Source: a virus (Duplodnaviria; Heunggongvirae; Uroviricota; Caudoviricetes). Taken from it: 39,211 nt of DNA. This document shows, piece by piece, positions 1,135-13,329 of the stretch. A program made the translations under genes and the position numbers. The stretch spans positions 1-39,211 of the IMG/VR virus record IMGVR_UViG_2778261139_000004. The stretch is one strand, 5' to 3'. The notes under the pieces are model-generated. The model worked only from the letters and a program-made list of their open reading frames with translations. It had not been told where the DNA came from and made no database searches. Every line of letters begins with the position of its first letter. Position 1 is the first letter of the stretch.

Positions 1135-1665
1135 TTACCTTAATTTATCAAGCTCTCGTTTATTTCTTTTATCATGTATATCATTAAGAAATAATATATT
1201 ACTAGCAATGATACTAAATAACGCTATTATTTGTAGATATACTAATAACGCTGTGATAAAAAATCCAAACTTGCAGAACACGTGCTTATGCAAGGAAATG
1301 AAATCCAGATTTGAAAATATAGGTTTCGTTAAATTTATTATAACAATAGAAAATATTACAATAGCTGAAATTATAATGGTTTTCACTATCAGCGTAATTC
1401 GCTCAATATCTTTTTCTGTTTCCTTATGATAGTTTATACTAGTTATTGTTGATGGCTTTACAATTGAACTTACAGCTGCAGGGTAAATATATGCAAGCCA
1501 AATACCTGCAATAGTGAAGATCATTGCAGAAATGTTTTGCAAGGTAGATAAAATATCTTTTATATCTGCATACGTATATTTGTCTCCGAACAAATAAGCA
1601 ATAGCTATAATTGTTAGGAGAAAACATATGTGCAAAATTTTAGGTTTTATAATCATACTATGCAC
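1135..1665 (-). CDS. Small polytopic membrane protein, about four predicted TM helices, function unknown (cargo)
   Basis: 176-aa ORF with four long hydrophobic segments (ILHICFLLTIIAIAYLF, ISAMIFTIAGIWLAYIY, ITLIVKTIIISAIVIFSIVIINL, FFITALLVYLQIIALFSIIASNILFL). AT-rich. Overlaps the upstream gene by 8 nt, suggesting translational coupling. Confidence 0.6.
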   Translation of the reverse strand: MHSMIIKPKILHICFLLTIIAIAYLFGDKYTYADIKDILSTLQNISAMIFTIAGIWLAYIYPAAVSSIVKPSTITSINYHKETEKDIERITLIVKTIIISAIVIFSIVIINLTKPIFSNLDFISLHKHVFCKFGFFITALLVYLQIIALFSIIASNILFLNDIHDKRNKRELDKLR

Positions 1666-2860
1666 CTATTTTATGAATCTGCACTGCTGTATCATTATCA
1701 GCTTCTGGTTGTTCTATTATATCTTCATTTTTAAAACAATTCACCAAATCATTTCTATGAGCTTTTACTACACTCATTAAATATGAAGAAGAGTAATGTT
1801 TGTTTCTGTTAGAAAGGTCAACGTGAATTTCATGGCGATAAACATATTCATCTAACCAAGTAGTTGAACCATTTTTTCCATTTATTTTGAATCCGATGCG
1901 TGCGTGATCATTCCCTACATTCTCATTGTTGTTTTCTGTATCTTCTGAAATAGGATTGTGGTTTTCTATATATTCATCGATGAGTTTAGTGAACTCTTCA
2001 GGCGTAGGCGTTCCTTCGACTAATAATTCAACGCGATGTTTTTTTGATAAAATAGGAGAGCTTCTTGAGAAAACATCTCCAACTGCATCAAATAACTTCT
2101 GCCATTTTTCCCGTGTATCAGGTATGTTTGTTTCTATTACGTCATGGTAAACAATGTGAGTGATTTTTTTACACAGTTCTTCTATGTTTGCTCCACTCGT
2201 GATCATCCTTGTTTGTTTAGTCTGTACTTTAAAAACTAAACTTTCATCATCACCTTGAGAAAAAAGAACACGTTTGTAATGAACGTCTTCAGGTGAGTCA
2301 TTACGAGGACGAGTCATATCTATGACTTTTTTATTAGGATGCTCCATCCTAAAGTCAACGTATGCTTTAATATAATGACAGAAAAGATCTGTATCCGTAT
2401 TAGAACTTGGGAATCGTATGGATGCAATTTTGTTATATTCTGGAATTACCCAATAGTAGCAAGGTACGCCCCAGATATATTTACCGCCACCTTGAGTATC
2501 AGAGGCGGATACAACATTATCTGAAGTGCCGTCAATCTTACTTTCAGCATCTATACCTTGAATATTTCCAGAGTTATCACCAAGCGTTTTCCAGATAACA
2601 AATAGATAATCTCCTGTCGTACTGTCATATGAAATATTTTTACAGTATGCTTTTGTTCTTCTATTATTATCCTTTCCCCATGGAACAGATTGTTCAACTG
2701 TTCTTGAACAGATCCAGCTATGTAAGTTACACAGAACATGGGATAAGTTCTTTTCGACTAATTCCGGCGATTTACCTTGTCGTATTTTATAAAGGCCAAA
2801 CATTTCTAAATCAAAAAATGTTATAATGCCGCGTTCAGTTTTAAAGTTGGTTTTACTCAT
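1658..2860 (-). CDS. Hypothetical 400-aa soluble protein of unrecognised family (cargo, first gene of a two-gene operon)
   Basis: 400-codon ORF in AT-rich DNA between cI and int. No Walker A, HNH, nucleotidyltransferase or other motif I can recognise. Same strand as cI and int. Confidence 0.6.
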   Translation of the reverse strand: MSKTNFKTERGIITFFDLEMFGLYKIRQGKSPELVEKNLSHVLCNLHSWICSRTVEQSVPWGKDNNRRTKAYCKNISYDSTTGDYLFVIWKTLGDNSGNIQGIDAESKIDGTSDNVVSASDTQGGGKYIWGVPCYYWVIPEYNKIASIRFPSSNTDTDLFCHYIKAYVDFRMEHPNKKVIDMTRPRNDSPEDVHYKRVLFSQGDDESLVFKVQTKQTRMITSGANIEELCKKITHIVYHDVIETNIPDTREKWQKLFDAVGDVFSRSSPILSKKHRVELLVEGTPTPEEFTKLIDEYIENHNPISEDTENNNENVGNDHARIGFKINGKNGSTTWLDEYVYRHEIHVDLSNRNKHYSSSYLMSVVKAHRNDLVNCFKNEDIIEQPEADNDTAVQIHKIGA

Positions 2861-2940
2861 TGTTATTGCTTCTCTTCACCTTTTAAATCTTTCGCTTAAT
2901 ATAATCACTTCTATTAGAATGACATTTGTTGAATGTCACT

Positions 2941-3822
2941 TTAATTCGAAATGATTGTGCTTCTTATGCATGCAACTACCTCGATATCAGAAAATGCACA
3001 TTCAAAGTAAGTTTCTTTACTTCTGATATTTATCATACCTTTAGGTAGCCTAGTAATTTGTCTGACGGAATAGGTTCCATCAATATTAATTAACCAGTAT
3101 CCATCTAATACATCAGAAAATTTCTGATCACAGATGTATGTCACTAAACCATCCTGAACGACAATTGGTGCTGAAAGATTAGCGGGTAAAAATGACGAAT
3201 CGAAAATATATGAGCCACTCTCAACCATTTTGCCTGCATTGAGATGAAATTTAGGCAGTTCTTTTACCGATGTTGTGAGAGCATTGTGCTCGCTGCCTTG
3301 TCCAGTGGCTAGCCATAAAAGAGAATTTCCTGTTTCCAACGAACATTTTATGATCCAATCAGCCGGGAATGTGTCTCGCAAATATCTATTTGCCATAGTG
3401 CTTTTAGATACATTCAGATGGTCGGCAAGTTCTTGTCTTGTTTTAAAGCCATACGCTTTCATTAGCCTGTCTATTGCATCACGTCCGCCTGAGTCCAAAT
3501 TCAGATCGTTCCCAATTGGGGACTTCAGTGTGGTGGCTTGGGAAACGTGCTGAACCTTTGATGCAGTTGCCTTTGACATGACCGGAGCCTCAGTACTCTG
3601 AGGGAATGGTACGCCTTTTCCGAATGAGAGCCACTCGATAGATGCACCCGTTTCAATTGCACACTGAATTACCCAGTCAGCAGGAAATACGTCACGCATC
3701 CAGCGCGTGCCCATAGTGCTTGCAGATACGTTGAACTGTTCGCACAGAGCTTGCCTTGTCTTGAATCCATACGCTTCAAGCATGCGCGTTATGACTGCTT
3801 GTCCTCCGTTTTTGAAATTCAT
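2941..3822 (-). CDS. cI: CI-like immunity repressor (186 type) with a tandemly duplicated N-terminal DNA-binding domain
   Basis: 293-aa ORF divergent from the apl/cII operon. Two related segments occur in tandem (MLEAYGFKTRQALCEQFNVSASTMGTRWMRDVFPADWVIQCAIETGASIEWL and LMKAYGFKTRQELADHLNVSKSTMANRYLRDTFPADWIIKCSLETGNSLLWL), followed by one C-terminal domain. Confidence 0.75.
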   Translation of the reverse strand: MNFKNGGQAVITRMLEAYGFKTRQALCEQFNVSASTMGTRWMRDVFPADWVIQCAIETGASIEWLSFGKGVPFPQSTEAPVMSKATASKVQHVSQATTLKSPIGNDLNLDSGGRDAIDRLMKAYGFKTRQELADHLNVSKSTMANRYLRDTFPADWIIKCSLETGNSLLWLATGQGSEHNALTTSVKELPKFHLNAGKMVESGSYIFDSSFLPANLSAPIVVQDGLVTYICDQKFSDVLDGYWLINIDGTYSVRQITRLPKGMINIRSKETYFECAFSDIEVVACIRSTIISN

Positions 3823-3947
3823 TTATTACGCCTTTGAGTAATTTTTGGTTGACTCTTCTCAAGTGAAGAATTAGTGTGTGCGAAAGTGAACTGAACAGGA
3901 TTAATCACCAGTTACCACACATCTTGTTAAACGAGGAATCTTGCATC
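3823..3947. promoter_or_regulatory. Lysis/lysogeny switch region between divergent cI and apl (face-to-face pR/pL type)
   Basis: 125-bp intergenic region between divergent regulator genes. TTGACT at 3858-3863 followed 17 bp later by TAGTGT is a possible rightward promoter. Operator positions not resolved. Confidence 0.45.
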
Positions 3948-4169
3948 ATGGCTCCACATATTTCAATCACCTTAGCTGTCCCATCTGTTTCTATTGAGAA
4001 ATACAGTGAACTGACTGGGTTATCTATCGATACTATCAATGACATGCTGGCTGATGGACGCCTTATTCGCCATCGTCTCCGTAAAGATAAAAAGCGAGAA
4101 AAGGTAATGATCAATATCGCAGCAATGACCGTTGATGCGCTCTCTGAATGCAATTTGAGTATTAACTAG
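3948..4169 (+). CDS. Apl/Cox-like excisionase and transcriptional regulator (small HTH protein)
   Basis: First gene of the rightward early operon, divergent from cI. Small basic protein with an HTH-like segment (IEKYSELTGLSIDTINDMLADGRL). Start chosen at the internal ATG 3948; the ORF track extends to 3876. Confidence 0.55.
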   Translation: MAPHISITLAVPSVSIEKYSELTGLSIDTINDMLADGRLIRHRLRKDKKREKVMINIAAMTVDALSECNLSIN

Positions 4170-4201
4170 TTCCATTTTGGGATACATCAGGGGGGTCGAC
4201 T

Positions 4202-4711
4202 ATGTTTGATTACCAAGTTTCCAAACATCCACATTTTGACGAAGCCTGTCGTGCATTCGCACTGCGCCACAACCTGGTGCAACTGGCAGAACGTGCAGGC
4301 ATGAATGTACAGATTCTGCGGAACAAGCTGAACCCAGCTCAACCTCATTTATTAACCGCACCAGAAATCTGGTTGCTTACCGATCTGACTGAAGATTCAA
4401 CGCTGGTAGATGGCTTTCTGGCACAGATTCACTGCCTGCCATGTGTACCGATTAATGAGGTGGCAAAAGAGAAACTGCCGCATTACGTCATGAGTGCAAC
4501 CGCAGAGATCGGGCGTGTTGCTGCAGGTGCGGTATCTGGCGATGTAAAAACCAGTGCAGGCCGTCGTGATGCGATCAGCAGCATTAACTCTGTTACACGA
4601 CTGATGGCGCTGGCCGCTGTTTCATTGCAGGCCCGTTTACAGGCTAATCCTGCGATGGCGAGTGCAGTTGATACAGTGACTGGCCTCGGTGCTTCATTCG
4701 GTTTGCTGTGA
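4202..4711 (+). CDS. CII-like establishment regulator (186 CII position and size)
   Basis: 169-aa ORF immediately after the apl-like gene; matches the position and, from recall, the size of 186 CII. Confidence 0.5.
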
Positions 4712-4718
4712 GGTGCTT

Positions 4719-4919
4719 ATGCTGACGAAAGAACCATCATTTGCATCGCTGCTGGTAAAACAAAGCCCGGCAATGCACTACGGTCACGGCTGGATCATGG
4801 GTGAGGATGGTAAACGCTGGCATCCGTGCCGTTCACAAGATGAATTGCTGGCAGAACTATCTACGAAAAAACGGGGGAACAAATGGCTATTGAAGGCGCT
4901 GCGGCGACTGTTCCATTAA
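4719..4919 (+). CDS. Hypothetical small early protein
   Basis: ATG at 4719 preceded by GAGGTG; the ORF track starts at a GTG at 4689. Confidence 0.4.
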   Translation: MLTKEPSFASLLVKQSPAMHYGHGWIMGEDGKRWHPCRSQDELLAELSTKKRGNKWLLKALRRLFH

Positions 4920-5224
4920 GCCCCGGTGAACGCCTGAATGGACTTAATCACATAGCGGAATTAAGGGCGAAAGTTTTTGGCCTGAATATTGAGTCAGAGC
5001 TTGAGCGGTTTATTAAAGATATGCGTGATCCACGGGATATCAATAATGAACAAAATAAACGGGCACTGGCTGCCATATTCTTTATGGCAAAAATTCCAGC
5101 TGAACGTCATAGCATCAGCATTAATGAGCTGACCACTGACGAAAAGCGGGAGCTGATTAAAGCAATGAATCATTTTCGTGCAGTGGTGAGCTTATTTCCC
5201 AGACGGCTAACCATGCCGAATTAA
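4883..5224 (+). CDS. Hypothetical early protein (113 aa)
   Basis: ORF in the early operon, preceded by GGGGGA. Confidence 0.5.
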   Translation: MAIEGAAATVPLSPGERLNGLNHIAELRAKVFGLNIESELERFIKDMRDPRDINNEQNKRALAAIFFMAKIPAERHSISINELTTDEKRELIKAMNHFRAVVSLFPRRLTMPN

Positions 5225-5291
5225 CCAATTACTGAAATTCATGGCGTAAACCCGCCGGGCATCCCTTTATCTAAATTCAGGAGAATTGATT

Positions 5292-5525
5292 ATGCGTAAT
5301 ATTGAAACCCTCTCGACTAAAACCGGACCGGATGACGCAGGGCTTAATATTTTACTGACAGAGGCTCGTCTGGAAGAACGCCGGGCAAGGGGTGAGGCAA
5401 TGGCTGCCCGCCTTGATAGCCTGGCGTGTCATATCACATCCCGCCAGCTAAACCACGTCGAAGCGGCAGAACTGCTGCGTGTGACTGCTGAAGCAATCCA
5501 GAACGAAGCGCAGGAGATCCACTAA
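5292..5525 (+). CDS. Hypothetical early protein
   Basis: ATG at 5292 preceded by AGGAG; the ORF track begins at a TTG at 5286. Confidence 0.5.
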   Translation: MRNIETLSTKTGPDDAGLNILLTEARLEERRARGEAMAARLDSLACHITSRQLNHVEAAELLRVTAEAIQNEAQEIH

Positions 5526-5752
5526 TGGCTGATGCAATGGATCTCGTACAGCAGCGCGTTGAAGAAGAACGTCAGCGCCATATCCGTGCTGCCCGTGCCA
5601 AAACACCGGGCGTGTCTCGCGTGCTTTGCATTGAATGTGAAGCGCCAATTCCGCCAGCAAGACGCCGCGTCATTCCGGGAGTGCAGCTTTGCATTACCTG
5701 CCAGGAAATCGCAGAGCTGAAAGGCAAACATTACAACGGAGGTGCTGTATGA
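5525..5752 (+). CDS. TraR/DksA-type C4 zinc-finger protein
   Basis: 75 aa with CIEC ... CITC cysteine pairs (C-x2-C ... C-x2-C); a typical P2-like early-region small zinc-finger protein. Confidence 0.6.
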   Translation: MADAMDLVQQRVEEERQRHIRAARAKTPGVSRVLCIECEAPIPPARRRVIPGVQLCITCQEIAELKGKHYNGGAV

Positions 5753-6606
5753 GCACCATCCTGAAATGGGCGGGTAATAAAACCGCCATTATGTCCGAAC
5801 TGAAAAAACATCTTCCTGCTGGCCCGCGACTGGTTGAACCTTTCGCGGGTTCTTGTGCTGTGATGATGGCGACGGATTACCCCAGCTATCTGGTTGCGGA
5901 TATTAATCCTGATTTAATCAACCTCTATAAAAAGGTTGCTGCTGATTGTGAGGCGTTTATATCTCGCGCCAGAGTTTTATTTGAGGAAGCAAACAGGGAA
6001 GTGGCTTATTACAACATAAGGCAGGAGTTTAATTACTCCACTGAAATTACTGATTTCATGAAAGCAGTATATTTCCTGTATCTCAATCGTCACGGTTACC
6101 GTGGGTTATGTCGCTATAACAAAAGCGGGTATTTCAACATTCCCTACGGTAATTATAAAAATCCGTATTTCCCTGAAAAAGAAATTCGCGCTTTTGCAGA
6201 AAAAGCCCAGCGAGCAACGTTTATCTGCGCCAGCTTTGATGAAACGCTGGCGATGTTGAAGGCGGGGGATGTGGTGTATTGCGATCCGCCTTATGACGGT
6301 ACGTTTTCCGGCTATCACGCTGACGGCTTTACTGAAGATGACCAGTATCACCTGGCATCCGTTCTTGAACATCGGTCATCAGAAGGACATCCGGTCATTG
6401 TTTCTAACAGTGACACATCCCTGATCCGTTCGCTGTATCGCAATTTTACTCACCACTATATCAAGGTAAAACGCAGCATCGGCGTAGCAGCTGGTGAGAG
6501 TAAATCAGCAACAGAAATCATTGCTGTTTCCGGGCCGCGCTGCTGGGTGGGATTTGATTATTCGCGTGGCGTGGATAGTTCTGCCGTGTACGGAGTACGT
6601 GCATGA
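5749..6606 (+). CDS. dam: DNA adenine methyltransferase (Dam-like, N6-adenine)
   Basis: N-terminal LKWAGNK and FAGS motifs and the catalytic DPPY motif (VYCDPPYDG). ATGA start/stop overlap with the upstream gene. Confidence 0.85.
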
Positions 6607-9017
6607 GCCATGCCGATATGAGCAACTGCTGCGGCTTTAAAGAGGCTGCCGCATCGTTCTCATGGAACAGCCCGAAAAAGGCCATTAACCCTTATCTGGA
6701 CCCGGCGGAAGTTGCGCCGGTTTCTGCGCTTTCAAACCTGATCACTCTGTACGCTGCCGATAACGAGCAGGAACAACTGCGCCGCGAGGCACTGAGTGAT
6801 CAGGTCTGGGAGCGTTATTTCTTTAATGAATCCCGTGATCCTGTCCAACGCGAAATAGAACAGGATAAGCTCATTAGCCGGGCAAAGTTGGCGCATGAGC
6901 AGCAGCGTTTTAACCCGGACATGGTCATTCTGGCAGACGTCAGCGTCCAGCCCTCCCATATCAGCAAGCCGCTGATGCAACGTATTGAATACTTCAGCAG
7001 CCTGGGCAGGCCAAAGGCTTATTCCCGCTATTTACGTGAGACGATTAAGCCATGTCTGGAACGACTGGAGCATGTACGCGACAGCCAGCTATCTGCATCT
7101 TTTCGTTTTATGGCAAGCCATGTAGGGCTGGACGGCCTGCTGATTCTGCCTGAAATGAGTCAGGATCAGGTGAAACGCCTGTCTACCCTTGTCGCTGCGC
7201 ATATGAGCATGTGCCTTGATGCAGCTTGTGGTGATTTGTATGCCACCGATGACGTTAAGCCAGAAGAAATCCGCAAGACATGGGAAAAGGTGGCAGCGGA
7301 AACCCTGCGTCTGGATGTCATCCCGCCTGCGTTTGAGCAACTCCGTCGGAAAAGAAACCGCCGTAAACCCGTGCCCTATGAACTCATTCCGGGTTCGCTG
7401 GCGCGTATGTTGTGCGCCGACTGGTGGTACCGGAAATTATGGAAAATGCGTTGCGAATGGCGGGAAGAGCAGTTGCGTGCTGTCTGCCTGGTCAGCAAAA
7501 AAGCATCTCCCTATGTCAGCTATGAAGCCGTGATGCATAAACGTGAGCAGCGCCGCAAGTCACTGGAGTTTTTCCGTTCTCATGAACTGGTGAACGAAGA
7601 GGGCGACACGCTGGATATGGAAGACGTGGTAAACGCCAGCAGCAGCAACCCGGCGCACCGCCGCAATGAGATGATGGCCTGTGTTAAAGGTCTGGAGCTT
7701 ATCGCGGAAATGCGCGGTGACTGCGCCGTTTTCTACACCATTACCTGTCCGTCACGTTTCCATTCCACGCTCAATAACGGCAGACCAAACCCAACCTGGA
7801 CAAATGCGACGGTAAGACAAAGCAGCGATTATCTGGTCGGCATGTTTGCTGCATTTCGTAAGGCGATGCACAAAGCCGGGTTGCGCTGGTATGGCGTGCG
7901 GGTGGCTGAGCCGCATCATGACGGTACAGTTCACTGGCACCTGTTGTGTTTCATGCGCAAAAAAGACCGCCGCGCCATTACTGCATTGTTGCGTAAGTTT
8001 GCCATCCGTGAAGACCGCGAGGAACTGGGTAATAACACTGGTCCACGCTTTAAATCTGAGCTGATAAACCCGCGCAAAGGAACGCCGACAAGCTACATCG
8101 CGAAATACATCAGTAAGAACATTGACGGGCGTGGTCTGGCTGGCGAGATCAGCAAGGAAACGGGTAAATCCCTGCGTGATAACGCTGAATACGTTAATGC
8201 CTGGGCGTCTCTGCATCGTGTTCAGCAATTCCGCTTCTTTGGCATTCCGGGGCGTCAGGCTTACCGTGAACTGCGATTGCTGGCTGGTCAGGCGGCAAGG
8301 CAACAGGGCGACAAAAAAGCAGGTGCGCCGGTACTGGATAACCCGCGCCTTGATGCCATCCTGGCTGCTGCTGATGCTGGTTGTTTTGCCACCTACATCA
8401 TGAAGCAGGGCGGCGTACTGGTTCCCCGCAAATATCACCTCATCAGAACCGCTTATGAAATTAACGAAGAGCCGACCGCCTATGGCGATCACGGCATTCG
8501 TATTTATGGCATCTGGTCACCCATTGCAGAGGGCAAGATCTGCACTCATGCCGTGAAGTGGAAAATGGTTCGTAAGGCCGTTGACGTTCAGGAGGCGGCA
8601 GCCGACCAGGGCGCTTGCGCCCCTTGGACTCGTGGCAATAACTGTCCCCTTGCTGAAAATTTGAACCAGCAGGAGAAAGATAAATCAGCTGATGGGGACA
8701 CCAGAACGGACATTACCCGCATGGATGACAAGGAGTTGCACGATTATCTGCACAGTATGAGCAAAAAAGAGCGCCGGGAACTGGCTGCAAGGTTACGCCT
8801 GGTTAAGCCGAAACGGCGTAAAGACTACAAACAGCGAATTACAGATCATCAGCGACAGCAGCTCGTCTATGAACTGAAGTCCAGAGGATTTGATGGCAGC
8901 GAGAAAGAGGTCGATTTACTCCTTCGCGGTGGCAGTATTCCGTCAGGAGCAGGCCTGCGTATCTTCTATCGGAACCAGCGTTTGCAGGAAGATGATAAGT
9001 GGCGGGATCTGTATTAA
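6603..9017 (+). CDS. A: Replication initiation endonuclease (P2 gpA family, rolling-circle initiator)
   Basis: 804-aa ORF containing the conserved YIAKYISK active-site tyrosine region; ATGA overlap with dam. Confidence 0.85.
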
Positions 9018-9109
9018 TTATGCGGGTTAACAATTCGTGCTCTTAATAATACCAGGTATATCAGGCTGATGATCGTAAAAAAACGTTTTACATCAGTAAG
9101 ATTATTATA

Positions 9110-9129
9110 TACTGTAAATATAAACAGTG
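9110..9129. promoter_or_regulatory. LexA (SOS) box overlapping a putative -10 element
   Basis: TACTGTAAATATAAACAGTG has CTGT-N8-ACAG and matches the LexA consensus TACTGTATATATATACAGTA at 17 of 20 positions. A TATACT -10 candidate at 9108-9113 overlaps it. Confidence 0.6.
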
Positions 9130-9168
9130 GTTATGCATACAGTATTGCTTGGTGTCATAGGAGGAAAG

Positions 9169-9357
9169 ATGCAGGACTATTTTTTGGAGTCTTTGAAGCT
9201 CCAGCGCATTGATTTTTTTCTTAAGCTTGTAGCGGCTAGTGAGTGTAGTGATGAAGAGAAGGGGCTGGCTTTGCAGTGGGTTTCTGAACTAACAGATGAA
9301 CTCATGGCAAAAATCAGAACCCACGAATACAACCGCTCAATGGATGTCATCAGCTGA
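9169..9357 (+). CDS. Small hypothetical protein, possible N-terminal part of a Tum-like SOS antirepressor
   Basis: 62-aa ORF with AGGAGGA upstream of ATG 9169; directly downstream of the LexA box and upstream of the dinI-like gene. Confidence 0.45.
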   Translation: MQDYFLESLKLQRIDFFLKLVAASECSDEEKGLALQWVSELTDELMAKIRTHEYNRSMDVIS

Positions 9358-9367
9358 GGTGACTTTT

Positions 9368-9601
9368 ATGCGCATTGAAATAATGATCGATAAAGAGCAG
9401 AAGATTAGCCAGTCTACCCTGGACGCCCTTGAATCCGAGCTTTACCGCAATCTGCGCCCCCTGTATCCCAAAACGGTAATTCGTATCCGTAAAGGTAGCT
9501 CTAACGGTGTGGAACTGACTGGACTGCAACTGGACGAAGAAAGGAAGCAAGTGATGAAAATTATGCAGAAGGTGTGGGAAGACGACAGCTGGCTGCATTA
9601 A
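9368..9601 (+). CDS. dinI: DinI-like protein
   Basis: 77 aa, MRIEIMIDKEQ ... VWEDDSWLH; resembles the DinI family in length and pattern (MRIEV ... start, acidic C-terminus with W). Confidence 0.7.
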   Translation: MRIEIMIDKEQKISQSTLDALESELYRNLRPLYPKTVIRIRKGSSNGVELTGLQLDEERKQVMKIMQKVWEDDSWLH

Positions 9602-9736
9602 GAAACGTTGCTGGCGTCTGAACTTGTTTCTGGCGTCAGCAAGGTTTAACAACGAGCCCTTGTGAGGCGTTAGCTCTGTAGTGCATGTCTATGCCGCATG
9701 AGATCGCATGATCGTTTGAGGATCGTTTTTGCTAAG

Positions 9737-9760
9737 GCCCGCCAGAACTGGCGGGCTTTT
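9737..9760 (+). terminator. Rho-independent terminator ending the early operon
   Basis: GCCCGCCAG-aac-CTGGCGGGC stem-loop followed by TTTT. Confidence 0.6.
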
Positions 9761-9807
9761 GCGTAGATCATGCAGGTGCATGAAAACCACTACATAAAGC
9801 GGGCAGG

Positions 9808-9826
9808 CGTGGCGGGGATACGAGCG
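9808..9826. other. cos-like motif resembling the P2/186 cohesive-end core
   Basis: GGCGTGGCGGGGATACGAG; the first 13 nt match my recollection of the 186 cohesive end (GGCGTGGCGGGGAAAGCAT). Recollection only, not verified. Confidence 0.3.
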
Positions 9827-9832
9827 CGCGCC

Positions 9833-9861
9833 TTGCCTTATATCTATTTGTTCATTAAAAT
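9833..9861 (+). promoter_or_regulatory. Putative sigma70 promoter for the retron ncRNA/RT operon
   Basis: TTGCCT (9833-9838), 17-bp spacer, TAAAAT (9856-9861). Confidence 0.3.
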
Positions 9862-10075
9862 CATTATGCTCTTTAGTGTAGGAACATTGGTTCCAGCCGG
9901 GTGATTAGCCAGGCTTAAATTTATTGTCCGGTTTAGGGTTGCGAAAGACACAGATTTCTCCTTCGCATCCCTGCCCGGGGCAGATATGCGAAGGAGAAAT
10001 CTGTGTCTTTCGCTGTCTTTAGTGAAGAGTCAAAGCGCTATGTAAAGTTGCATAGCGCTTTGGTTTTAAGAGGGG
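9862..10075 (+). ncRNA. Candidate retron msr-msd non-coding RNA region; boundaries approximate
   Basis: Structured non-coding DNA directly upstream of a retron-type RT: palindrome GGAAC-attg-GTTCC (9881-9894), perfect 28-bp inverted repeat (9941-10013) and a perfect 12-bp hairpin (10031-10062). a1/a2 repeats not confidently identified. Confidence 0.4.
9941..10013. repeat. Perfect 28-bp inverted repeat with a 17-nt partly palindromic spacer (candidate msd stem-loop)
   Basis: GCGAAAGACACAGATTTCTCCTTCGCAT (9941-9968) and its exact reverse complement (9986-10013); spacer CCCTGCCCGGGGCAGAT. Confidence 0.9.
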
Positions 10076-10079
10076 TTAT

Positions 10080-11015
10080 ATGCAACTAACTTCTAAAATT
10101 ATCAGTAAGTTTAATTATAATAGATTAGCTTTCCAATTACTTTTAAATGAGGCCCCCAAAAAATATAAAGTTTATTATATTCCTAAACGTGGCGCAGGTT
10201 TTCGGGTGATAGCTCAGCCGACAAAGGAACTAAAAAACGTACAGAGATTTATAGTATCTTTGCTACAGCCAAAGCTGCCTGTTCATCATAAGGCAATGGC
10301 ATATGAATATAAAAAAAGTATTAAAGATAATGCATTGTTGCATAAAGATAATAATTATATTCTTAAAATGGATTTTCAGAACTTCTTTAACAAAATTAAA
10401 CCTGATATATTTTTCTCGAAACTTGAGAACACAGGGCTGAAATTGGATTCATTTGATGAGAATACCCTACGTAATTTGCTTTTTTGGCGTCCGGGAAAAA
10501 AGAGAAGTACAACGTTGATATTAAGTGTAGGGGCGCCAAGCTCACCATTTATTAGTAATTTTGTTATGTATGACTTTGACAAGAGTCTTGATGATTGGTG
10601 CCGTAACAATGGTATCACTTATTCAAGGTATGCAGATGATATAACTTTTTCAACTAATATTAAGGATATATTGTGCAGGGTTCCTAAGGTGGTAAAAAAA
10701 ATGTTGTCGCTCCATGTTCCCGGTCTATCAATCAATGAATCTAAAACAATTTTTACATCGATGGCTCATAATCGGCACGTGACTGGTGTAACACTTACAC
10801 CTCAGGGCAATTTATCAATTGGTCGCGATCGTAAAAGGATGCTGTTTGCAAAGATTCATAAATATTCTTTGGGACTCTTATCTTCCGAAGAAATAAATAA
10901 AACCAAAGGGATGATTGCGTTTGCAAATTATTTGGAGGGTGATTTTTTATTAAGGTTACAAAAAAAATATGGTTGTGAGTTAATAACTAAGTTCCTGATG
11001 GAAGGAAACAAATAA
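10080..11015 (+). CDS. Retron-type reverse transcriptase
   Basis: 311 aa with the RT active-site motif YADD (SRYADDITFS), an upstream GAPSSP motif, and the retron-typical VTG motif (NRHVTGV) downstream. AT-rich cargo. Confidence 0.85.
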   Translation: MQLTSKIISKFNYNRLAFQLLLNEAPKKYKVYYIPKRGAGFRVIAQPTKELKNVQRFIVSLLQPKLPVHHKAMAYEYKKSIKDNALLHKDNNYILKMDFQNFFNKIKPDIFFSKLENTGLKLDSFDENTLRNLLFWRPGKKRSTTLILSVGAPSSPFISNFVMYDFDKSLDDWCRNNGITYSRYADDITFSTNIKDILCRVPKVVKKMLSLHVPGLSINESKTIFTSMAHNRHVTGVTLTPQGNLSIGRDRKRMLFAKIHKYSLGLLSSEEINKTKGMIAFANYLEGDFLLRLQKKYGCELITKFLMEGNK

Positions 11016-12649
11016 TGATAAATAAAATGAATTTAGAGACTTGCTATGTTGATTTTTTAGAGTTGGAATCACATGTGATAAACGAGGATTATTTGAAGGA
11101 GTCTGTTGAGCTTCAAAAGCTAATATCTACTTTAAATGAGAGTAAGTTTCATTTAAATAAAATAGGTATACATGATTTTAAACGGATAAGAGAACTACAG
11201 ATTTCTTTAGAAGATGATTTGACTGTTTTTGTCGGGGATAACGGATTCGGTAAAAGCACTATTTTGGATGCAATAGCAATTGTTTTGAGTTGGTTGAGAT
11301 CAAATATTGAAAAGGAGAGTAAGCCTGGTACTTATATTAAAAGCCATGAAGTTAATAACTCTGTTGATGTTGAGTATGCATCAATTGATGCAAATATAAA
11401 ACTCAAGGACTTTAATACCAGTATTTTGATTACTAAAGCGAAAGAGGGGGCATATTATTCTAGAAATAATGAATTGTTGGAGGTAAAAAAACTTGCAAGT
11501 ATTTATAGACTTGTGAATAAATATGTTGATAATGCAAGCTTGCCTTTGATGGCATATTATTCTATTGCGCGTTCTTATATAGGCGGCGGGGTTGATAGGA
11601 AAAGAAAAAATGCTAAAACTAAAACTGTATGGTCAAAATTCGATGTGTATGATGAAATCGAGTTTGACAGAAATGATTTTACCGATTTTTTTCAATGGCT
11701 TGTATTTCTTCATAACAGAGCTTCACAAGAGAAATTGAGTGAGTCACAAACGACAATCAATGCGTTATTTTCAGATATTCAGAGTTTGAAAGCAACATTA
11801 ACTCAACTATCTGCGATTGATAATATTGATTCAACAGTTATAAAAGGTTTAGAGCTTTCGCTTAAAGAAAAATTGAACTACATGAAATCTCTGCAATCAG
11901 GAGAACATAAGTTTAATAATGCAGTATCACTTTATGATAGTGTTATAAATACCATTCTAAAGTTCTTGCCTGAATTTCAGTGGATTAAGCTTGTTTATGG
12001 TGATGATGATTATAAGATTATCCTTAAAAAAGGAGAGGTTGAATTAGATATTCAACAGTTGTCTCAAGGTGAGAAAACTATATTTACTTTAGTTGGTGAT
12101 TTGGCTCGACGTTTAATTTTACTTAATCCAAATTTATCTAATCCTCTATTGGGATATGGGATTGTTTTAATTGATGAAATTGATTTGCATTTGCATCCGC
12201 AATGGCAACAGACAATTATTGAGCGTTTGACATCTACATTCCCAAATGTTCAATTTGTAATTACTACCCATAGCCCACAGGTTTTATCCACTGTTAGCTC
12301 TCGTTCAGTGCGTATTCTACAGGAAGTGGAAGTAGATGGTGTTAATGATTTGATAGTGTCTCACCCCGACTATCAAATAAAAGGTGTTAGTAATCAGGAT
12401 GCACTTTTATATGGAATGAGAACTGATCCTATACCCTCTACTAAAGAAAATGGTTGGCTTGAAGAATATAAAAAATTGGTTGAGCTTAATCGTTATAGCA
12501 GTGACGAGGCTCTTTTGTTAAGAGAAAAAGTTATTAAACATTTCGGATTAGACCATCCTTTAGTTCAAGAGTGTGATGATCTTATATCTGTTTTGGAGTT
12601 CAAAAATAAGATAAATCAGCACTTTTCTGGAAGTAAGGATGTAAAATGA
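11015..12649 (+). CDS. PtuA-like ABC/AAA-type ATPase (Septu-type effector partner of the RT)
   Basis: Walker A GDNGFGKST, Walker B VLIDEIDLHLHP, TTHSP motif. Start overlaps the RT stop. Confidence 0.8.
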   Translation: MINKMNLETCYVDFLELESHVINEDYLKESVELQKLISTLNESKFHLNKIGIHDFKRIRELQISLEDDLTVFVGDNGFGKSTILDAIAIVLSWLRSNIEKESKPGTYIKSHEVNNSVDVEYASIDANIKLKDFNTSILITKAKEGAYYSRNNELLEVKKLASIYRLVNKYVDNASLPLMAYYSIARSYIGGGVDRKRKNAKTKTVWSKFDVYDEIEFDRNDFTDFFQWLVFLHNRASQEKLSESQTTINALFSDIQSLKATLTQLSAIDNIDSTVIKGLELSLKEKLNYMKSLQSGEHKFNNAVSLYDSVINTILKFLPEFQWIKLVYGDDDYKIILKKGEVELDIQQLSQGEKTIFTLVGDLARRLILLNPNLSNPLLGYGIVLIDEIDLHLHPQWQQTIIERLTSTFPNVQFVITTHSPQVLSTVSSRSVRILQEVEVDGVNDLIVSHPDYQIKGVSNQDALLYGMRTDPIPSTKENGWLEEYKKLVELNRYSSDEALLLREKVIKHFGLDHPLVQECDDLISVLEFKNKINQHFSGSKDVK

Positions 12650-13329
12650 AATATCTATCTAGGCAAATGCCAGGGCCTTCCGTTCTTAATAAATTTGACT
12701 ATAGGAGGGATGATTGGAATTCCCTATCATCAAATGATAAAAAAGAAATATGGGAAGAAATAATAAAAATGCAAGGTAAATTATGTGCTTATTGCGAGAA
12801 AAAAATAGAGCATCATAAAAGTGGTGGCAAAAATAAAGTTGAGAGGCATATTGAGCATTTTTACAGGAAAAGTTATTACAAAAATTTAACTTTCGAGTGG
12901 TCTAATTTGTTTGGCTCATGTGGTGAGCCGCAAAGGTGTGGGTTTTATAAGGATAAGCAAAAATATAACGATGATGATTTAATTAAAGCTGATAGACAAA
13001 ATCCAGATGTTTTTTTCCATTTTTTGGAAAATGGTGATGTTCATATTAGAGAAGGCTTGAATGAGAAAGAACACAAAATGGCAGAGGTTACGTTAAGAGT
13101 ATTTAACTTAAACCCGTCCTCAGGAGGAGTCAAGGCGGAAAGAAGACGTGCAATAGAATTAAGCATGACATTAATAAAGGAACTGGTCGGATGTGCATCT
13201 CAGCTTATTGAATCAGGATGTGAAATTGAAGATGTTAGATCTATGGTCTTTGATGAGTTTAAAAAGAATGTAAAAGATAGATGCTTTACCACTGCGATAA
13301 AGCATGTTTTTGAGAATAGAATGCCTTAA
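12646..13329 (+). CDS. PtuB-like HNH-type nuclease
   Basis: CAYCEKKIEHH ... ERHIEHF ... SCGEPQRCG cysteine/histidine pattern consistent with an HNH zinc-finger nuclease. Overlaps the ATPase stop by 4 nt. Confidence 0.65.
   Translation: MKYLSRQMPGPSVLNKFDYRRDDWNSLSSNDKKEIWEEIIKMQGKLCAYCEKKIEHHKSGGKNKVERHIEHFYRKSYYKNLTFEWSNLFGSCGEPQRCGFYKDKQKYNDDDLIKADRQNPDVFFHFLENGDVHIREGLNEKEHKMAEVTLRVFNLNPSSGGVKAERRRAIELSMTLIKELVGCASQLIESGCEIEDVRSMVFDEFKKNVKDRCFTTAIKHVFENRMP

Follow-up and report, generated by a model that had tools for sequence, protein, structure and literature searches.

In phage 186, the antirepressor Tum sequesters the CI repressor after derepression of the promoter p95 (PMC7708051; also PMC3121763), and in the phages Fels-2 and PSP3 the tum gene is split in two, with the antirepressor activity residing in the upstream gene (Lemire et al., 2011, PMC3121763). 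In DuoHS, a prophage of Escherichia coli HS, deletion of tum (ECHS_RS04495, a gene for a protein of 62 amino acids (aa)) and a lexA(Ind-) allele each block the lytic replication that is triggered by mitomycin C (Phollow study, PMC12055606). Fels-2 has been held responsible for the lethality of a lexA-null mutation (Bunny et al., 2002, cited in PMC3121763), and the Fels-2 operon STM2726–STM2728 appears in a set of operons that were flagged for a response to the mutagen MX (PMC2225428), a weakly supporting observation. In the prophages Gifsy-1 to Gifsy-3, LexA-repressed dinI-gfoA/gftA operons encode a small antirepressor together with a DinI homologue, and the phage repressor is not cleaved (PMC3121763). 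Here, we analyzed a pair of small open reading frames (ORFs), ORF1 with 62 aa and ORF2 with 77 aa, in the virus record IMGVR_UViG_2778261139_000004, whose complete 39,211 nucleotides (nt) are referred to as the window. The initial annotation had interpreted this pair as a Tum-like SOS antirepressor module, and our data support this interpretation as essentially right: the pair very probably constitutes the SOS induction operon of a Fels-2/186-type (Peduoviridae) E. coli prophage in a tumA-tumB arrangement, to which the 186 model can be applied in a bicistronic form. The module as such is already known and very common, as the arrangement has been described and genetically tested in a near-identical prophage.

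The window represents a P2/186-like (Peduoviridae) prophage of E. coli, and identical DNA is found, for example, in strain 98208. The gene pair is located directly 3′ of the replication endonuclease gene A (gpA, 6603–9017), and upstream of the pair lies a 186-type switch that comprises the gene for the CI repressor (2941–3822, minus strand), an Apl/Cox-like gene, cII and fil. The placement after gene A is the same in 186, Fels-2, PSP3, vB_EcoM-813R9 and DuoHS, and the initial annotation had correctly stated that 186 tum follows the replication gene and has a DinI-like C-terminal half, as evidenced by the 186 record with p95, the LexA box and tum after gene A. The closest experimentally studied relative is DuoHS, in which ECHS_RS04495 is identical to ORF1 at 61 of the 62 positions and ECHS_RS04500 is 100% identical to ORF2, and which shares with the window the identical 20-nt LexA box, the gap of 10 nt between the two genes and the position after gene A. 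As ECHS_RS04495 differs from ORF1 in a single residue, the mitomycin C experiment that had been proposed for the window has therefore already been done on an almost identical module. What the present analysis contributes are the sequence features, homologies and conservation of the pair, and its near-identity to experimentally tested genes.

The regulatory region of the operon is characterized by the LexA box TACTGTAAATATAAACAGTG (9110–9129, plus strand, as are all features of the module described below), which matches the consensus TACTGTATATATATACAGTA at 17 of 20 positions. No other site in the 39 kb window has up to three mismatches to the consensus, and such a site did not arise in any of 100 shuffles that preserved the dinucleotide composition. 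The bare CTGT-N8-ACAG core is common by chance, as at least one core occurred in 37 of the 100 shuffles, and the weight of the LexA assignment therefore rests on the full 20-mer and on its conservation. For the comparative analyses, one genome per species was scanned, and this resulted in 33 loci with an ORF1 homologue (61–100% identity) from Escherichia, Citrobacter, Enterobacter, Klebsiella, Kluyvera, Serratia, Pantoea, Erwinia, Tatumella and other genera. When loci with an ORF1 homologue or with tum were analyzed together, 33 of 38 had a LexA site (up to 4 mismatches, up to 130 nt upstream of the gene), compared with 0.4% of 9018 equally sized background windows that were taken from the same loci. 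The five loci without a site at this cut-off are one truncated contig, three loci whose sites have 5 mismatches, and one decayed locus in which ORF1 is cut to 20 aa. The 20-mer of the window is found identically in Fels-2, DuoHS and vB_EcoM-813R9.

A -35-like hexamer TTTACA (9087–9092) is positioned 17 nt 5′ of TACTGT (9110–9115), the first hexamer of the LexA box and presumed -10 element, and this arrangement matches the annotated geometry of 186 p95, TTCACA-18 nt-TACTGT, in which the -10 element is likewise the first hexamer of the LexA box. The hexamer TTTACA is kept across genera, in most of the 38 loci. LexA binding and SOS-inducible transcription are known for 186 p95 (PMC7708051), and for the box of the window they are implied by the lexA(Ind-) phenotype of DuoHS with its identical box (PMC12055606). 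An additional LexA-type right half-site, ATACAGTAT (9137–9145), follows 11 nt after the right arm of the box. Its pattern (A)TACAGT(A/T) is kept in most Fels-2-type loci (L006–L026 at the equivalent place), and in many of them the corresponding 20-mer has 3–4 mismatches to the LexA consensus, but GTGG or GTGT replaces the critical CTGT. In the alignment, the half-site falls where 186 and PSP3 have their only LexA box, which gives the impression of a partial duplication of the box.

ORF1 extends from an ATG at 9169 to a TGA at 9357 and is preceded by the Shine-Dalgarno (SD) sequence GGAGG (9160–9164, read from the sequence), which is found before the ATG in nearly all loci. Its relation to Tum becomes visible only with profiles. 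ORF1 belongs to phrog_698 (3.6e-38), a family of proteins of about 63 aa to which no function is assigned, and it also matches phrog_8554 (2.4e-8) and phrog_1993 (2.2e-3). The first 70 residues of Tum match the same three families, namely phrog_1993 (1.5e-23), phrog_8554 (3.4e-12) and phrog_698 (5.9e-6), and residues 6–44 of Tum fall in register on positions 6–44 of the phrog_698 profile. An hhalign comparison of the ORF1 family alignment with the alignment of the Tum N-terminal family covered 53 columns from Met1 with a score of 23.6 (E 3e-4), which is above all scores of 200 column shuffles (mean 10.2, maximum 16.9) and above that of the reversed alignment (5.7). Because of these in-register cross-hits and the hhalign score beyond all shuffles, we consider ORF1 to be distantly homologous, at the sequence level, to the N-terminal half of 186 Tum and assign it as a tumA-type antirepressor gene.

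No model of Pfam, NCBIfam or PADLOC matches ORF1. The AlphaFold2 model is a two-helix hairpin (pLDDT 90.8), and its Foldseek matches in the PDB and in BFVD were generic helical hairpins throughout, with E values of 0.4 at best. When the PDB was searched with the sequence of 186 Tum, only DinI came up (1GHH, 7YWA), with no solved antirepressor–CI structure among the matches. A longer ORF1 call that starts at GTG 9127 (76 aa) was rejected as an over-extended start, as the extension crosses the LexA box and its frame is broken by an indel of 2 nt in the comparison with DuoHS, and database entries of 84–106 aa were likewise rejected as over-extended.

ORF2 extends from an ATG at 9368 to a TAA at 9601 and is a tumB-type DinI-like protein: residues 14–76 match positions 1–63 of the 63 positions of the Pfam DinI profile PF06183 (E 6.6e-23, 81.3 bits at a cut-off of 24.2). 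The two ORFs, the DinI-like nature of the second one and the 10 nt between them were thus correctly described in the initial annotation, and the alignment of both ORFs to Tum that it had suggested resulted in a direct match of ORF2 to Tum residues 71–145 (about 41% identity (41–42%), E 3e-24) and in the profile-based link of ORF1 to the N-terminal half. ORF2 is 78% identical to PSP3 TumB and about 30% identical to a DinI reference sequence. Its score with the NCBIfam equivalog model of host DinI, NF007893, is 42.7 bits and thus below the cut-off of 111, and by these matches ORF2 is to be regarded as a phage DinI-like paralogue, not as an orthologue of chromosomal dinI. A longer ORF2 call from ATG 9296 (101 aa) was also rejected as over-extended, as the upstream extension is closed in most loci.

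The initial annotation had considered two options for this arrangement, a split tum gene or a natural bicistronic operon, and the comparison of the homologous loci speaks for the latter and against a split by frameshift. In the window, there is no single fused Tum ORF of about 146 aa, as ORF2 lies in the +1 frame relative to ORF1, and a stop codon and an SD sequence are found between them. The TGA of ORF1 overlaps the SD sequence of ORF2 (TGAGGTG, 9355–9361, read from the sequence), and the stop codon is fused to a G-rich SD sequence in all loci with both genes (e.g., TAAGGGG, TAGGGGG, TGAGGGG), which suggests translational coupling of ORF2 to ORF1. The length of ORF1 is 62 aa in almost all of the 33 loci, and length, stop codon and the SD sequence of ORF2 are kept across more than 15 genera. 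An adjoining DinI-like ORF is present in 17 of the 33 loci, at a distance of 9, 10, 11 or 12 nt and in frame 0 (5 loci), +1 (4 loci) or +2 (8 loci). In three further loci (L009, L023, L036) the DinI-like gene is cut to 9–28 codons, and in 13 loci no DinI-like gene is found within 900 nt downstream (L010, L014, L020, L024, L028–L035, L037). Judged from these loci, the DinI-like partner is evidently dispensable and has been repeatedly lost, and the many loci with ORF1 but without an intact DinI-like gene fit the view of ORF1 as the core and ORF2 as an accessory component. Both ORFs are under strong purifying selection, with ratios of nonsynonymous to synonymous substitution rates (dN/dS) of 0.04–0.14 for ORF1 and 0.06–0.16 for ORF2 in pairwise Nei-Gojobori comparisons with the window, in which dS was often saturated (about 1 or more in the case of ORF1). 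Since gap and relative frame vary, since both ORFs are under purifying selection, and since ORF1 often occurs without the DinI gene, we regard the pair as naturally bicistronic and the two-gene arrangement as the common state. Homologues of the N-terminal half of 186 Tum in a large protein collection are mostly stand-alone proteins of 63–78 aa, several of which are named 'Tum protein'. The 186 record lists internal starts in tum, including a GTG that gives a DinI-only product of 76 aa, and an internal SD sequence AAGGAGG is found 5 nt before this GTG (7279–7295), at the place where tumB starts in the split phages. The fused 186 Tum, with its kept internal SD sequence and start, therefore looks like a derived form that originated from a tumA-tumB fusion.

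Two other explanations of the gene arrangement need to be weighed against these data. The pair could be a pseudogene, that is, a single 186-like tum of 146 aa that has been broken by a frameshift or stop codon. The frame of ORF2 is indeed open for 25 codons upstream of its ATG, and both ORFs would be joined by a single +1 shift located between 9293 and 9354, which answers the question of the initial annotation as to whether one frameshift suffices. However, the relative frame takes all three values among the 17 loci, the open stretch upstream of ORF2 often comprises only 1–6 codons, the length of 62 aa, the stop codon and the SD sequence are conserved while both ORFs are under purifying selection, and the dominance of stand-alone proteins of about 63 aa among the homologues of the Tum N-terminus, together with the internal SD sequence and GTG in 186, fits a derived fusion. 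A broken gene is thus already refuted by the comparative sequence data, and we consider it practically excluded. Alternatively, ribosomes could undergo programmed +1 frameshifting close to the end of ORF1 and add a fused Tum-like protein to the two separate products, and the +1 frame of ORF2 with its overlap-free open stretch of 25 codons in the window, Fels-2 and DuoHS would be compatible with that. Again, the relative frame varies among the homologous loci, no conserved slippery or stall motif was seen, and the hairpin between the ORFs is insignificant (z -1.34) and not conserved, and a frameshift product is therefore extremely improbable.

For the naturally bicistronic operon, the following course of induction can be proposed. 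In the lysogen, host LexA would bind to the box at 9110–9129, which covers the presumed -10 element and the start region, and thereby hold the operon off. Upon DNA damage, activated RecA would cause the self-cleavage of LexA, the promoter would fire, and a transcript spanning ORF1 and ORF2 would be formed that stops between 9603 and 9763. The helical hairpin protein ORF1 would then bind the 186-type CI non-covalently and keep it off its operators, the early lytic promoter would be derepressed, and lytic growth would follow. The translation of ORF2 is probably coupled to that of ORF1, and ORF2 may modulate the RecA filament or its co-protease activity and hence the strength or duration of the SOS signal, as an accessory factor that would not be needed for the switch itself. 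The dependence on LexA cleavage, the requirement for the 62-aa gene upon mitomycin C treatment and the sequestration of CI by Tum are taken in this model from the literature on near-identical or homologous modules.

The CI repressor of the window, the presumed target of ORF1, consists of 293 aa with two tandem Phage_CI_repr helix-turn-helix (HTH) domains (residues ~6–72 and ~113–178) and one CI_C domain (Pfam). Pfam detects no S24 peptidase domain in this CI, RecA-stimulated self-cleavage is therefore not expected, and the antirepressor route would be the natural link to the SOS response. We infer that ORF1 targets the CI of the window. A double-HTH CI is also found in PSP3 (286 aa) and in the Klebsiella phage 4LV2017 type (314 aa), whereas most relatives have only one HTH domain. 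Beside the same or nearly the same ORF1, CI repressors are encoded that are 74% (813R9), 49% (DuoHS, locus L005), 44% (4LV2017) and 43% (Fels-2) identical to the CI of the window, and across the loci the conservation of ORF1 far exceeds that of its presumed target. The CI C-terminal domain shows an identity of 25–43% across loci, and the HTH domain one of 58–80% with a common RD.FPA(D/E)W motif; this preservation of the HTH domain while the C-terminal domain diverges hints at the HTH domain as the target. The locus in Pantoea stewartii ATCC 8199 (L026, ~1186–8186) is an exception to the trend that the N-terminal domain of CI tracks ORF1 better than the C-terminal domain: it combines a Fels-2-type 62-aa ORF1 (84% identical to that of the window) with a 186-type CI that is 63% identical to 186 CI and has the motif RYTRGTISYD in place of RD.FPADW. 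This locus could be either a mismatched recombinant or a sign of broad antirepressor specificity.

Several observations weigh against an operon that induces the prophage through CI antagonism. In the literature that we considered, CI binding has been demonstrated only for 186 Tum and not for the Fels-2-type 62-aa protein, and the relationship of the two is distant: BLASTP gave no alignment of ORF1 with 186 Tum, the identity to the 186 Tum N-terminus and to PSP3 TumA is only 21–22% in a multiple alignment, and the hhalign probability for the two families is only 40%. The cognate pairing of ORF1 with the CI of the window is an assumption, as the tested or named relatives DuoHS and Fels-2 have CI repressors of only 49% and 43% identity that lack the extra HTH domain, and the combination in Pantoea stewartii points in the same direction. 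The role of ORF2 is extrapolated from the annotations of DinI and 186, and Gifsy prophages in which the dinI homologue was deleted showed no measurable change in induction (PMC3121763). As to the promoter, the initial annotation had placed the LexA box over a -10 element; the geometry of the annotated 186 p95 agrees with this, whereas a generic sigma-70 scan of the window did not call a promoter at 9087–9115, because the weak -10 hexamer TACTGT shares only three of six bases with TATAAT.

Two alternative scenarios follow from the pairing and the distant homology. The module could be intact and SOS-controlled but not cognate to the CI of the window, if a gene A-linked, Fels-2-type tum has been brought together by recombination with a heterologous immunity region of the double-HTH kind; in that case this CI would escape inactivation by ORF1, and induction of the prophage would be poor or absent. 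The divergent CI repressors beside the same or nearly the same ORF1, the occurrence of the module in 1125 of 5426 complete E. coli genomes while the CI allele of the window is present in only 31 of them, and the Pantoea locus with its 186-type CI would all be in line with such a mismatch. On the other side, the strong purifying selection on ORF1 in these mixed contexts is hard to explain if the protein were mostly non-functional, the conserved HTH domains of the partner repressors with their motif offer a plausible common target, and the module of the window shows no decay, and we thus regard a non-cognate pair as unlikely. ORF1 could also be needed for induction without binding CI, through an action on Apl/Cox, CII or a host factor, with the DinI-like ORF2 as the main SOS modulator. 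For this, one can refer to the restriction of known CI binding to 186 Tum, which is only 21% identical to ORF1, and to the fact that ORF1 is far more conserved than CI across the loci, which would be unusual for a specific protein–protein antagonist. However, ORF1 is homologous to the N-terminal half of Tum and has an equal position and control, the phenotype of the DuoHS tum deletion is that of a 186 tum deletion, and tumA of PSP3 has been reported to carry the antirepressor activity (PMC3121763). A function of ORF1 apart from CI is therefore very unlikely, and the SOS-induced antagonism of CI by ORF1 is the reading that we prefer.

This raises the biological question of how one nearly invariant antirepressor handles highly divergent CI repressors, including those with two HTH domains. 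A tentative answer, which we consider possible though doubtful, is that ORF1 did not co-evolve with one cognate CI but is a broad-specificity antagonist that recognizes a conserved surface on 186-type CI repressors, most plausibly on their N-terminal HTH domain, which bears the RD.FPA(D/E)W motif. If this were true, heteroimmune P2-like prophages, or satellites with such repressors, could be derepressed by a P2-like prophage that undergoes SOS induction in the same cell, and immunity specificity and induction specificity would be uncoupled in a very common prophage family. A promiscuous ORF1 would thus imply cross-induction among P2-like prophages, as it has already been shown for the Gifsy phages.

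The SOS transcript probably ends shortly after ORF2. Just 3′ of ORF2 lies a strong hairpin with a weak U tract (9603–9647; -24.4 kcal/mol, z -4.2, none of 200 shuffles as stable), which possibly is a partial terminator like t95a at the equivalent place in 186. It is followed by an intrinsic terminator at 9734–9763 with the GC stem GCCCGCCA/TGGCGGGC and a subsequent TTTT (fold of 9690–9770: -32.6 kcal/mol, z -3.3), and termination at one of these two structures is the most probable end of the transcript. A terminator-like hairpin between the two ORFs (9346–9363) was rejected, as its z-score is insignificant, as it is not conserved in other loci, and as its T run contains the start codon of ORF2. 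Downstream, in a cargo site between the tum module and the portal gene Q, a complete type I-A retron (Ec78/Eco7-like) is encoded at 9833–13329 on the plus strand. It comprises a promoter-like site (9833–9861), an msr (9868–9932; Rfam RF00170, 45.9 bits, which is under the gathering score of 52), an STnc400-like match that is probably the msd (9934–10071; 73 bits versus 80), the reverse transcriptase RT_I-A (10080–11015), a PtuA-like ATPase (11015–12649) and a PtuB-like HNH nuclease (12646–13329). A read-through of the SOS transcript into the retron is made less likely by the strong hairpin and the canonical terminator, and by the fact that the retron has an msr and a promoter-like site of its own. 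The equivalent site holds other cargo in related phages: Fels-2 carries an orf97-like gene, 813R9 a Ymh-domain gene and 4LV2017 an St85-type retron. The region that separates cI from the integrase contains two ORFs of low GC content (400 aa and 176 aa; 1135–2860, minus strand), which have no Pfam domains and match the PADLOC candidate defence system PDC-M18A (2.1e-36) and PDC-M18B (5.2e-24).

In the 1125 complete E. coli genomes with the module, the two genes are annotated as 'hypothetical protein' and 'DinI-like family protein'. PGAP assigns ORF1 as 'hypothetical protein' in E. coli, and a few records name it 'levan regulatory (domain) protein', apparently a propagated misnomer. In the RefSeq record of the Klebsiella phage 4LV2017 (L038, NC_047818.1), both ORFs are 100% identical to those of the window (9406–9838) and yet unannotated. 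The value of the present analysis is therefore more practical than conceptual: the gene that decides on the response of the prophages to DNA damage is unnamed in about a fifth of the complete E. coli genomes, and, because no Pfam or NCBIfam model covers ORF1, the introduction of a family model under the name tumA would set thousands of annotations right.

Compared with the known systems, the module of the window is closest to those of DuoHS and Fels-2. DuoHS differs in its single-HTH CI and in the hypothetical genes that are found downstream in place of the type I-A retron. In Fels-2, STM2728 is identical to ORF1 at 61 of 62 positions and STM2726.1 is 100% identical to ORF2, and promoter and LexA box are as in the window, whereas its CI has 210 aa with a single HTH domain, and STM2726, a gene of the size of orf97, follows the module instead of a retron. 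PSP3 has an equal bicistronic layout after gene A, and it shares the double-HTH CI with the window. The PSP3 record describes tumA (60 aa) as 'similar to 5' end 186 tum; UV induction of prophage' and tumB as 'similar to dinI and 3' end of 186 tum'. In contrast to the high similarity of TumB to ORF2, TumA is only 22% identical to ORF1, the gap between the genes is 3 nt, and a single LexA box is located about 40 nt from the start codon, without the extra half-site. The p95-tum region of 186 corresponds to the window pair in the LexA box whose first hexamer is the -10 element, in the position after gene A, and in the combination of an N-terminal antirepressor with a C-terminal DinI-like part, but it encodes one fused ORF of 146 aa with internal starts instead of two cistrons, the N-terminal identity is 21%, and the operon runs into orf97. 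With chromosomal E. coli DinI (PDB 1GHH), ORF2 shares the fold family and the acidic C-terminal helix motif W-E-D-D-S-W. A tblastn search with ORF1 among 50,697 phage records found only P2-like records; GfoA and GftA were not directly compared. The Gifsy operons follow the same logic as the window pair, but their dinI gene comes first, and they belong to lambdoid phages with unrelated repressors.

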